A stretch of DNA of 55,241 bases from IMG/VR virus record IMGVR_UViG_3300032282_001003, positions 1 through 55,241 of that record; one strand, written 5' to 3'. The position numbers and the translations under genes were made by a program. Within the stretch, counting starts at the first letter, position 1, and each line of letters opens with the position of its first letter. A model generated the notes under the pieces. The model ran no database searches and was not told the origin of the DNA. It saw only the letters and a program-made list of their open reading frames with translations. Below are positions 14,578 through 18,813 of the stretch, in pieces. The stretch comes from a virus. Lineage: Duplodnaviria; Caudoviricetes.

Positions 14578-14768
14578 TCCAAGACTTCGCACGCGTATTG
14601 CGCGAAAAAATACGCACCGACATGAACAACTACGCCGACGACTTGGCTGGTGGCATGTGTCGCAACTTTGAAGATTACCAAAAACTCTGCGGGACTATCT
14701 CAGGTCTAGCGCTTGCGGAGCGTCACCTACTTGACCTGCTTGAGAAAGTCGAAAAATCAGATGAGTGA
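14574..14768 (+). CDS. small conserved head-module protein
   Basis: ATGA-coupled to portal; FEDYQKLCGTISGL motif. Confidence 0.8.
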   Translation: MIQDFARVLREKIRTDMNNYADDLAGGMCRNFEDYQKLCGTISGLALAERHLLDLLEKVEKSDE

Positions 14769-15195
14769 AATCCTTCTGCCACCGGGCATTGTTTTGCCTC
14801 AGCACATCCAACCAGCGGAGACGCCGGACGAGGATGCCAGTGAAGAAACCAAAGCCGCCGCGCTACCTACCCCCACGGGCTGGAAGCTATTGTGCGTAGT
14901 ACCTGAAGTCGAGCAAAAGATTGCCGGTACGACCCTTGATCTCGTGAGAGATACAGCAAGTATGCGCCAAGAAGAACACGCCACCACGGTGTTGTTTGTA
15001 TTGCGTGTAGGCCCCGATGCGTACAAAGACACTGCCAAGTTCCCCACAGGAGCATGGTGCAAGGAAGGTGACTTTGTGCTGGTGCGTACGTACTCTGGTA
15101 CGCGCTTTAAGATTTTTGGGAAAGAGTTCCGTCTCATCAACGACGACCAAGTTGATGCTGTTGTGCAAGACCCTCGTGGGCTGACCCGCGTTTGA
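14761..15195 (+). CDS. groES: phage co-chaperonin, GroES/Cpn10-like
   Basis: PTGWKLL...VLRVGP...KEGDFVL...YSGTRFKI.GKEFRLINDDQVDAVV aligns with the GroES pattern. Confidence 0.85.
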   Translation: MSEILLPPGIVLPQHIQPAETPDEDASEETKAAALPTPTGWKLLCVVPEVEQKIAGTTLDLVRDTASMRQEEHATTVLFVLRVGPDAYKDTAKFPTGAWCKEGDFVLVRTYSGTRFKIFGKEFRLINDDQVDAVVQDPRGLTRV

Positions 15196-17229: not shown

Positions 17230-18159
17230 ATGGCTATTTCACGCGCACAACTACTTAAAGAACTGCTCCCCGGTCTGAACGCTTTGTTCGGTATGGAGTA
17301 TGCTCGTTACGGCGAAGAGCACAAGGAAATCTATGAGACCGAGAAATCGGAGCGTAGCTTTGAAGAAGAAACCAAGCTTGCTGGTTTCGGTGCTGCTCCC
17401 GTTAAAAACGAGGGTCAAGCAATTGCGTATGACAATGCGCAAGAAGCTTTCACCGCACGCTACAACCACGAAACCATCGCCTTGGGCTTCTCGATCACCG
17501 AAGAAGCTGTGGAAGACAACCTGTATGACAGTCTGTCTGCTCGCTACACCAAGTCGCTGGCCCGTGCTATGGCGTACACCAAACAAGTTAAAGCCGCCTC
17601 CGTTATCAACAACGGTTTCAGCGGTTCGTACTTGGGCGGTGACGGTGTGTCCCTGTTCGGTGTGAACTCTTCCAGCAGCCAAGTGGGCCACCCACTGGTT
17701 GGCGGCGGTGTTAACCAGAACGCTCCTGCCACCGCTGTGGACTTGAACGAAACCTCGTTGGAAAATGCTGTGATCCAGATCGCTGCATGGACTGATGAGC
17801 GCGGTCTGTTGATCGCCGCCAAGCCCCGCAAGATGTTGGTTCCTCCGTCGCTGATGTTCGTTGCCAAGCGTTTGCTGGACACCGAACTGCGCGTTGGTAC
17901 GAACGACAACGACATCAACGCACTGAAGCAGATGGGCGCAATCCCTGAAGGCTACACCGTTAACCACTTCTTGACCGACACCAACGGCTGGTACCTGATT
18001 ACCGACGTTCCCAACGGCATGAAGCACTTCGAGCGTATCGCCCTGCAAAACAGCATGGACGGCGACTTCGATACCGGTAACGTGCGTTACAAGGCTCGTG
18101 AGCGTTACAGCTTCGGCTGGTCTGACCCTCTGGGCATGTGGGGTTCCGCTGGAGCCTAA
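17230..18159 (+). CDS. major capsid protein (HK97 fold, Mu GpT-like)
   Basis: MAISRAQLLKELLPGLNALFG, FSITEEAVEDNLY, GGDGVSLF, YKARERYSFGWSDP; strong TAAGGAG RBS; followed by a terminator. Confidence 0.92.
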   Translation: MAISRAQLLKELLPGLNALFGMEYARYGEEHKEIYETEKSERSFEEETKLAGFGAAPVKNEGQAIAYDNAQEAFTARYNHETIALGFSITEEAVEDNLYDSLSARYTKSLARAMAYTKQVKAASVINNGFSGSYLGGDGVSLFGVNSSSSQVGHPLVGGGVNQNAPATAVDLNETSLENAVIQIAAWTDERGLLIAAKPRKMLVPPSLMFVAKRLLDTELRVGTNDNDINALKQMGAIPEGYTVNHFLTDTNGWYLITDVPNGMKHFERIALQNSMDGDFDTGNVRYKARERYSFGWSDPLGMWGSAGA

Positions 18160-18196
18160 TCGGACTCAGTAAGGTAGAGGTGACTGGCCTGCCACT

Positions 18197-18224
18197 AGGG
18201 CCCCTTCGGGGGCCCTTTTTATTT
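18197..18224 (+). terminator. intrinsic terminator after the MCP
   Basis: AGGGCCCC-TTCG-GGGGCCCT followed by TTTTATTT. Confidence 0.9.
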
Positions 18225-18225
18225 A

Positions 18226-18254
18226 TTGCACAACCCGCAAAACCGTGATATATT
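18226..18254 (+). promoter_or_regulatory. sigma70-like promoter
   Basis: TTGCAC-N17-TATATT with extended TG at 18246-18247; same -35 hexamer as the promoter at 9853. Confidence 0.7.
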
Positions 18255-18261
18255 GCAACCA

Positions 18262-18345
18262 CTCCGGGGTTCCCGGTGCATCAAACTGACCCGGCAGACG
18301 ACATACCGATTGATGCACTGATCTTGTATGTAAGGATAATTTATC
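18262..18345 (+). ncRNA. putative structured (pseudoknotted) 5' leader RNA
   Basis: 11-bp helix 18274-18284/18310-18320; its loop can pair with 18264-18268 and with 18326-18331 next to the SD. Confidence 0.55.
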
Positions 18346-18813
18346 ATGGCAGTTTCTACCACCCAGAGTATTTGGCGTTCTGGCGGCGGCGATCAAACTC
18401 GCGCTGCGTACTGCGGTTCCGGCGTCATGGCCGCGACTTTCTACATCCCCGCTGCTGGCACCGCTGGCAACGTGCAGGCTTCTGCAACCAACACCGCCCG
18501 TGTTGTTTTGCCTGCTGGCGCAGTTCCCCTGAACATCATCATCAACGACACCGGCACCGGTCAAATTGATCTGGGCTTCACAGACGGAACCACCCCCTCG
18601 GCAAACGGCCTGCTCAACGACGCTGCCGTGACTGCCATTGCTTCGATTGCTGCTGGAGCCACTGGCTCGGGCGCATCGCTGGGCACCGTGCTGAGCGCAA
18701 CCAAGAACGTGACAATCACCAACGCTGTTGGCGGAACACCGGGCACCGGTACCGTTGGCGGTGTGATCGTGTACTACGTCACCGACCCCTACGCTGGCCA
18801 GCAAAACGTCTAA
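18346..18813 (+). CDS. virion structural protein (probable capsid decoration/spike)
   Basis: Gly/Ala/Thr-rich beta protein with LPAGA motif, after the MCP. Confidence 0.65.
   Translation: MAVSTTQSIWRSGGGDQTRAAYCGSGVMAATFYIPAAGTAGNVQASATNTARVVLPAGAVPLNIIINDTGTGQIDLGFTDGTTPSANGLLNDAAVTAIASIAAGATGSGASLGTVLSATKNVTITNAVGGTPGTGTVGGVIVYYVTDPYAGQQNV

Follow-up and report, generated by a model that had tools for sequence, protein, structure and literature searches.

The rpsO (S15) pseudoknot and the alpha-operon (S4) double pseudoknot of E. coli are protein-binding translational operators, and the preQ1-II, SAM-II, SAM-V and guanidine-III riboswitches share the general plan of a compact H-type pseudoknot, whose marginally stable 3' strand reaches the Shine-Dalgarno sequence (SD). 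In phage T4, according to the main-text passages of PMC10690425, gp32 controls its own translation by means of a pseudoknot located just upstream; the same passages report 8,495 unnamed candidate RNAs (the DNAVirus_N series) from IMG/VR intergenic regions, with covariation evidence. Flavivirus xrRNAs of class 1a are outlined, in the part of PMC8571300 that deals with their fold, as a three-way junction P1/P2/P3 accompanied by P4, with a PK1 of 1–2 bp and a PK2 that originates from a hairpin loop.

The leader RNA analysed here precedes a predicted capsid cement-like gene in the uncultured-virus record IMGVR_UViG_3300032282_001003 (55,241 bases, completeness estimate 87%; the whole stretch is hereafter called the window). 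It resembles the T4 gene 32, S15 and S4 operators in being a pseudoknotted leader beside the ribosome-binding site of a dosage-sensitive gene, with a structured element that extends from about +3 to the SD, but it shows no relation to them in sequence or at the level of models, possesses its own architecture, and any protein partner is only putative. Like the H-type riboswitches it is small and has a marginally stable 3' pseudoknot strand reaching the SD, whereas it differs from them in comprising two interwoven pseudoknots (PK1 and PK2) rather than one, in mostly abutting the SD instead of pairing with it, in having no Rfam match, and in standing before a virion gene and not a metabolic one. 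With the class 1a xrRNAs, as described in that part of PMC8571300, it has in common two interwoven pseudoknots, one linking the 5' end to the core and one linking an inner segment to a strand downstream of the closing helix. Unlike them it lacks the three-way junction P1/P2/P3 with the conserved J2/3 cytosine, and has instead one closing helix and one 3-bp hairpin; moreover, PK1 is 5–6 bp long and involves the hairpin loop, PK2 involves a junction strand, and here too Rfam gives no match.

The sequence-only reading of the window had been unable to assign the RNA to any named family, and Rfam 15 bears this out: between positions 17800 and 18800 only five weak matches were obtained at E-values up to 10, none of them past 18243 and none on 18261–18345, and in 8 diverse related loci no match at E-values up to 1 fell on the motif, all matches being far under the gathering scores. 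The DNAVirus_N candidates come from the same data source (IMG/VR) and rest on the same kind of evidence (covariation), but the pipeline text of PMC10690425 describes no double pseudoknot, and its main-text passages do not mention an element preceding a cement gene. Because the motif has so many copies, its nested part may well be among the 8,495 members of that series. The full-text literature search revealed neither a paper on this leader element nor a description of RNA-level control in a phage capsid operon.

Anatomy of the leader and its locus

The features of the locus, all on the + strand, are as follows (the changes on both sides of helices refer to the comparison of related copies described below).

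17230..18159, +, major capsid protein gene, 309 aa (Pfam Phage_capsid_4, E 7.9e-12; PHROG major head protein; at least 600 relatives in viral_contigs)
18197..18216, +, terminator-like hairpin (stem of 8 pairs, of which 7 are G-C; 4-nt loop), then a T run (T-rich tail)
18226..18254, +, predicted sigma-70-like promoter (TTGCAC 18226–31, 17 nt, TATATT 18249–54, TG 18246–47)
18264..18268, +, PK1 5' strand CCGGG, pairs with CCCGG 18290–94 (4 of 5 pairs change on both sides)
18269..18274, +, linker from PK1 to the main helix, 6 nt, unpaired in the fold
18272..18276, +, CCCGG, competing partner of the PK1 5' strand, overlapping the base of the main helix; chosen by the minimum free energy (MFE) fold, with weak comparative support
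18275..18284, +, main helix 5' strand, pairs with 18310–19 (10 of 10 pairs change on both sides)
18286..18297, +, inner hairpin, CTG 18286–88 with CAG 18295–97; its loop is A18289 plus the PK1 3' strand 18290–94
18301..18306, +, PK2 5' strand ACATAC, in the loop of the main helix, pairs with 18326–31 (6 of 6 pairs change on both sides)
18310..18319, +, main helix 3' strand, partner of 18275–84
18326..18331, +, PK2 3' strand GTATGT, ending where the SD begins
18332..18336, +, Shine-Dalgarno sequence AAGGA (AAGGA or GAGGA aligned in relatives)
18346..18813, +, gene of a 155-aa capsid cement-like protein (ORF; the model fold matches, as does a relative's annotation)

All helix strings quoted by the sequence-only reading were found at these coordinates, as were the terminator of the capsid gene and the TTGCAC-N17-TATATT promoter-like site that it had placed before the leader. 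A similar G+C hairpin with a T run is visible after the capsid gene in the alignment of relatives. The promoter scan also lists an overlapping site, TGCACA-16-TATATT with TG (9 of 12 matches). The predicted promoter would place the transcription start near 18261, which leaves an 85-nt gap to the ATG at 18346.

Within this gap the strands follow the order PK1-5', main-5', PK1-3', PK2-5', main-3', PK2-3', an arrangement supported by covariation. To the three helices named earlier we add the 3-bp inner hairpin, the loop of which holds the PK1 3' strand, so that PK1 can stack directly on the hairpin. The bases A18285, A18298, C18299, G18300, C18307, G18308 and A18309 are unpaired in the fold, a 6-nt linker separates the main helix 3' strand from the PK2 3' strand, and in the window an 11th main-helix pair, C18274:G18320, is possible. 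In 57 representative sequences three unpaired bases (A18285, A18298 and A18309) and five paired ones (C18286, G18288, G18294, C18295 and G18297) are invariant, and C18290, C18299 and G18308 are nearly so. On reading the alignments, synonymous sites in the first codons vary, and the structure therefore seems not to reach into the ORF. A start-stop mini-ORF (ATG TAA, within the PK2 3' strand) was considered and rejected, since on reading it is not conserved in other lineages.

Several further observations concern the neighborhood. Upstream, the ORF at 14713–15195 (+) shows a weak match to Cpn10/GroES (E 0.0023, under the Pfam cut-off), and a co-chaperonin GroES is annotated upstream of the capsid module in relatives. 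Downstream, the cement-like gene itself contains another terminator-like hairpin, accompanied by a T run, at 18489–18505 (+). In 14 of 46 loci with a complete capsid gene, leader and product, the leader begins 702–1,142 nt past the capsid stop, because an extra gene has been inserted between the terminator and the leader's promoter. The inserted gene is a GIY-YIG plus NUMOD3 homing endonuclease in one locus (L016:3518-4264) and an endonuclease VII-like protein in another (L080:3464-4324), and other insertions resemble Cys-rich nucleases or small acidic proteins (examples are L003:3515-4117, L009, L026, L028 and L037). Selfish insertions seem to concentrate in this gap between the capsid terminator and the leader.

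Relatives of the leader and covariation of its helices

Relatives were collected along two routes. Protein searches of viral_contigs supplied 99 loci, i.e. the best 80 of at least 600 capsid-protein stretches and 19 loci retrieved with the downstream protein. In BLAST with 18160–18345, 43 of these 99 loci (39 unique sequences) have the segment reaching from the -10 box to the SD in common with the window, at 72–97% identity, and compensatory changes in all three helices named by the sequence-only reading could be seen by eye in the matched relatives. A pattern scan, based on the inner hairpin and a part of a PK2 strand with a 6-nt spacing that is absent from the window itself, added at least 120 further loci. 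A regular expression gave 237 candidate places, of which 181 passed the filters for main-helix register and for SD plus ATG; these comprised 126 unique sequences, 124 after removal of two chance matches. The filtered set thus consists of 179 loci with 124 unique leaders, and as a copy had to show the hairpin motif, 8 or more of the 10 main-helix pairs and SD plus ATG to be admitted, counts over the 124 copies are not independent for the hairpin, the main helix and SD/ATG.

MAFFT alignments of the 57 representatives (A1 and A2) were not used for counts, because they staggered the strands of the pseudoknots. Instead, a seed alignment (A3) was made from those 20 of the 57 representatives in which PK1 and the main helix are separated by a linker of the same length, 6 nt, and two covariance models were derived from it, R1 with the nested helices only and R2 with the two pseudoknots only. 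In the window plus the 99 protein-retrieved loci R1 found 92 matches, one per source and all on the gene strand (the window having a single copy), and R2 found 94, again one copy per locus. Accordingly, the element was detected in 91–93 of the 99 loci, which had been retrieved by their proteins only. Six loci were missed by both models. L013 is by eye a divergent copy (E 0.015 in the covariance-model search, where all E-values are rough owing to shortened calibration); L051 and L079 end 41 and 52 nt past the capsid gene; and L034, L035 and L073 have an inserted gene, with ends 405–1,461 nt after it. Among the first 100 pattern loci R1 matched 94, the remaining six being chance matches of the pattern.

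Searches of named phages gave mixed results. The cultured phage DSL-LC04 carries the element (roughly calibrated E-values 5.8e-8 and 1.1e-7 with the covariance models), and Pelagibacter phage HTVC027P exhibits a weak match to R1 (15.3 bits, E 0.09) and none to R2. No covariance-model match was obtained in Planktothrix phage Pag-Yong1 or Roseobacter phage CRP-901. In the latter two the same intergenic position is occupied by a different sequence matching neither model (L221:3890-4040 in Pag-Yong1, L224:2795-2975 in CRP-901), followed by cement-like N-termini (MSTTLFPAPV and MATSTFSGP, respectively), and these spacers may represent other leader types. Compared by BLAST with 50,697 deposited phages, the 88-nt leader and a second variant gave only three chance 20-nt matches, or nothing.

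Ten pattern matches were also found in genome_contigs (L225–L234, species-representative genomes), all of them in freshwater (lake) metagenome-assembled genomes (MAGs) from at least 7 unrelated taxa: Nitrosomonadales, Armatimonadetes, Acidibacter, a betaproteobacterium, Caulobacter and Caulobacteraceae, Chloroflexota, Nanopelagicales and one unclassified bacterium. Two of the ten contigs are 58–60 kb long, and the ten copies are probably phage contigs mis-binned into MAGs; with so many unrelated taxa among the matches, no host can be named.

Two covariance-aligned sets were used for the main counts, each fitted without one half of the structure. In A4 (80 distinct rows, fitted to the nested helices only) 92.4% of the cells are paired, compared to 30.6–36.6% when the partners are slid by 1–3 columns; substitutions on both sides are seen in 22 of the 24 pairs, and none of 500 shuffles reaches the observed value of any measure. 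PK1 is paired in 94.9% of the cells, the main helix in 96.0%, the hairpin in 99.6%, and PK2 in 78–83% over three counted segments. In A5 (82 distinct rows, fitted to PK1 and PK2 only) the overall value is 95.4%, with 99.5% for PK1, 91.7% for the main helix, 99.6% for the hairpin and 95.3% for PK2. The seed A3 gives 94.2%, and the pattern-derived A7 (56 distinct rows), for which the pattern had fixed the hairpin and a part of PK2, gives 90.0% against 32–41% with slid partners. Across the four alignments 90–95% of cells are paired, compared to 20–46% in slid controls, 17–22 of 24 pairs are changed on both sides, and 0 of 500 shuffles do as well. As an example of the exchanges, the middle pair of the inner hairpin is U-A in 38 of the 80 rows of A4, A-U in 35, G-C in 6 and C-G in 1. 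G-U and U-G pairs are frequent (in A4, 28 G-U at the first pair of the main helix and 17 U-G at the third), which indicates that it is the RNA of the + strand that is selected, and not the DNA.

Swapping strands among the 124 copies provided a further control. The own 3' strand of PK1 finds a full 5-bp upstream partner in 117 of 124 copies, as opposed to 4,032 of 10,506 trials with foreign strands, and for PK2 the own strand succeeds in 121 of 124 copies and foreign strands in 1,323 of 11,394. Thus, the comparison of homologous loci, suggested along with the sequence-only reading as a check, bears out the compact double-pseudoknotted leader that it had proposed: all three of its helices covary, together with the added hairpin, and comparative analysis confirms the leader as a real, evolutionarily conserved double-pseudoknot RNA, with four helices kept by compensatory change.

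The proposed switch fared differently. The sequence-only reading had let the PK1 5' strand alternate between its pseudoknot partner and the competing one, as a hairpin 18264–68/18272–76 (about -7.6 kcal/mol in the window), and the ViennaRNA MFE fold indeed takes this hairpin in place of the pseudoknots. The MFE of the window's leader, -20.1 kcal/mol, corresponds to z = +0.60 (143 of 200 shuffles fold as well), which is uninformative, because ViennaRNA cannot model pseudoknots. Across the relatives the competing hairpin is paired in 81.2% of the cells compared to 79.4% in shuffles; the observed percentage is reached by 15 of 500 shuffles and the covariation score by 77 of 500, and only the count of double changes stands out (16 vs 6.2). 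On reading, the hairpin is absent from some lineages of the CTGGG and CCCAG types, e.g. L040 and L062. A conserved two-state switch of this kind is therefore not supported, and a search among the relatives revealed no conserved alternative fold.

At the 5' edge of the element, 77 of the 124 unique copies have a hexamer that agrees with TATAAT at 5 or more of its 6 positions and ends 7–10 nt before PK1, which lends support to the promoter proposed by the sequence-only reading and places the start 2–3 nt before the fold; other copies have, by reading, weaker -10 boxes behind TTGACA. The element thus spans the whole 5' untranslated leader of the cement gene, from about 3 nt after the predicted start to the SD. 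In a minority of the copies (L104, L141 and L162) a terminator-like hairpin with a T run directly adjoins PK1 and no usable -10 box is present, and hence the element would be internal to a read-through transcript; copies of this type keep a lineage-specific, compensated PK1 (CTGGG/CCCAG; CCGAGG/CCTCGG). At the other edge, the 3' strand of PK2 abuts the SD four-mer in 97 of 124 copies, overlaps it by 1–2 nt in 18 and lies 1–6 nt away in 8, one copy having no SD four-mer. In L013, L030, L045, L046 and L058 the PK2 3' strand, TTGAGG (TTTGAG in L030 and L058), by eye covers the SD largely or entirely, so that the SD is paired within PK2. Elsewhere the SD mostly stays unpaired, and no conserved anti-SD stretch was seen on reading the alignments. 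The predicted duplex energies over the 124 copies are -13.2 ± 1.8 kcal/mol for the main helix, -7.3 ± 1.6 for PK1 and -5.8 ± 0.9 for PK2, which comprises exactly 6 bp without extension in 90 of them.

Two contigs from sequencing runs touch the element. One RNA-library contig matches 18298–18419 at about 90% likeness and informs on neither the ends nor transcription. In one contig of run X10, 18146 is joined to 18264, with 117 nt skipped or replaced, and the likeness of this relative resumes at the first base of PK1; being a single contig with a short side, the junction is only a hint of the 5' border of the element.

The cement-like gene downstream

The product of the gene at 18346, which the sequence-only reading had regarded as structural, is indeed likely to be a virion protein. 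Sequence searches of the cement-like products against Pfam, PHROGs and PDB sequences gave no matches, and the structure of the 155-aa protein was modeled from an 18-row alignment with moderate confidence (pLDDT 63.8). The best fold matches of this model are capsid chains of cyanophage Pam1 (7eel_H, E 8.0e-4) and Ralstonia phage GP4 (8h89_J, E 8.9e-4), followed by the KHP30 capsid chain 7dn2_1 and the KHP40 cement protein 7dou_4, with TM-scores of 0.41–0.49. The gene behind the same RNA in phage DSL-LC04 is annotated as 'cement protein', and the product of 18346..18813 models as a capsid cement-like protein. According to the part of PMC9698820 that gives its composition, a GP4 head contains 540 copies of the cement protein and 540 of the capsid protein, which suggests that cement dosage matters.

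The products found behind the leaders form four clusters of 60–240 aa, three of which share an N-terminus of the type M-A-x-T-T-F-S-G-P-V, and the window's cluster starts with M-A-V-S-T-T-Q-S-I-W. As far as the products could be classed, every filtered copy (179 loci, 124 unique) precedes a cement-like virion gene, and no metabolic or transport genes were seen downstream in this set. The cement-like genes of the window and of L002–L220 are mosaics, in which a conserved N-terminal arm of about 10–15 residues is joined to unrelated bodies. When the 46 loci in which all three parts (capsid gene, leader and product) are complete are compared with one another, 32 pairs share 90% identity or more in the leader, and in 23 of these pairs the downstream proteins are less than 30% identical. 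With leaders alike and proteins unlike, the conserved module appears to comprise the promoter, the leader and the first 10–15 codons, while the body of the protein is exchanged.

A candidate control element and its alternatives

The architecture of the element and its position suggest that it probably sets the amount of cement protein made. A specific version of this idea, to which we give roughly an even chance of being right, is that the double pseudoknot is a leader setting translation initiation of the cement gene, with PK2 gating the SD. A stable core would consist of the main helix (10 bp) and of PK1, which is rich in G+C and stacked on the 3-bp hairpin, and the short, A+U-rich PK2 (6 bp, about -6 kcal/mol) would serve as the gate. 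With PK2 closed, the SD would be drawn against or into the fold and become less accessible to the 30S subunit; with PK2 open, it would be free. The invariant A18285, A18298 and A18309, together with the nearly invariant C18299 and G18308, may form the site that decides whether PK2 stays closed, and the effector would most likely be a bound factor, which holds or releases PK2. Our best guess, and the weakest step of the mechanism, is that this factor is either the major capsid protein in its free form or the cement protein's conserved N-terminal arm; a component of capsid assembly is suggested because only the cement gene is found behind the element and the leader remains unchanged when the body of the protein is swapped. 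Such an effector would match cement synthesis to capsid production. Three features suggest PK2 as the gate for the 30S subunit: its contact with the SD is fixed, it is uniformly weak next to a strong core, and its 5' strand is flanked by invariant bases. On the other hand, an abutting PK2 could equally stack on the SD/anti-SD helix and raise translation, so that the sign of the effect could be either; a protein needed in capsid-like amounts, behind a strong promoter-like site, is no obvious target of repression; and the SD is left unpaired in most copies, neither a conserved anti-SD nor an alternative fold having been found.

The lack of a conserved alternative fold is also what would be expected of a constitutive structural leader without effector, the tucked or capped 5' end of which protects the mRNA from 5'-end-dependent decay, while the SD is presented for steady high translation. 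Consistent with this, about 3 nt separate the predicted start from the element (as judged from the -10-like hexamer that 77 of 124 copies have), the very 5' end is drawn into the interior by pairing in PK1, and the strand order is the same as in the two interwoven pseudoknots of flavivirus xrRNAs, as far as these are described in the part of PMC8571300 on their fold. Nevertheless, we consider a constitutive leader unlikely, since protection does not explain why PK2 touches the SD in 115 of 124 copies or swallows it in some lineages, nor why L104, L141 and L162 keep a compensated PK1 although their element lies inside a read-through transcript and not at a primary 5' end. Carried further, the analogy would make the knot a phage counterpart of the animal-virus xrRNAs, in which PK1 threads the first bases of the message into a ring that PK2 closes; nucleases that depend on the 5' end (RNase J, or RNase E when it senses that end) could then not enter, and a ribosome at the SD, on the edge of the ring, would open it. 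This is a speculative idea that we hold to be quite improbable; if true, the knot would be the first example from a phage of an RNA with this kind of mechanical resistance.

The invariant unpaired bases in the junction of a compact pseudoknot and the marginally stable 3' helix that touches the SD are equally reminiscent of a small-molecule riboswitch of the pseudoknot type, where a metabolite or ion bound at the junction would stabilize PK2 and turn translation off or on. As far as the products of the 179 loci can be classed, only cement-like virion genes lie downstream, and the lack of a metabolic or transport gene suggests no ligand and argues against a metabolite riboswitch; nor does Rfam give a riboswitch match in the window (E up to 10) or in 8 diverse loci (E up to 1), and we therefore find this reading improbable. 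The same unpaired bases in a double-pseudoknot fold could belong to a self-cleaving ribozyme or to a nuclease processing site, which would free the cement message from the capsid transcript or trim its 5' end, as might befit an element that sits directly after a terminator or promoter and directly before an ORF, and that is retained in lineages where it is a part of a read-through transcript. We judge this to be very improbable: the Rfam models of the hammerhead, HDV-like, twister, twister-sister, pistol, hatchet and glmS ribozymes have no match in the window or in the 8 diverse loci, the alignment reveals no conserved base before PK1, and a fixed contact with the SD is unneeded for cleavage. 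The strand order is also unlike that of HDV, where the 5' strand pairs with a strand after the hairpin, whereas here it pairs with the hairpin loop.

Whatever the mechanism, four covarying helices, two of them crossing, together with a few invariant unpaired bases are the signature of a specific three-dimensional function. The element is abundant in lake phages and sits in the capsid operon, the best-known part of the phage genome, and its presence in the cultured phage DSL-LC04 makes it open to testing. Should it prove to be a riboswitch, a ribozyme or a fold that resists nucleases, it would represent a new class; if it is a translational operator, it would show how a phage matches its cement protein to its capsid protein.
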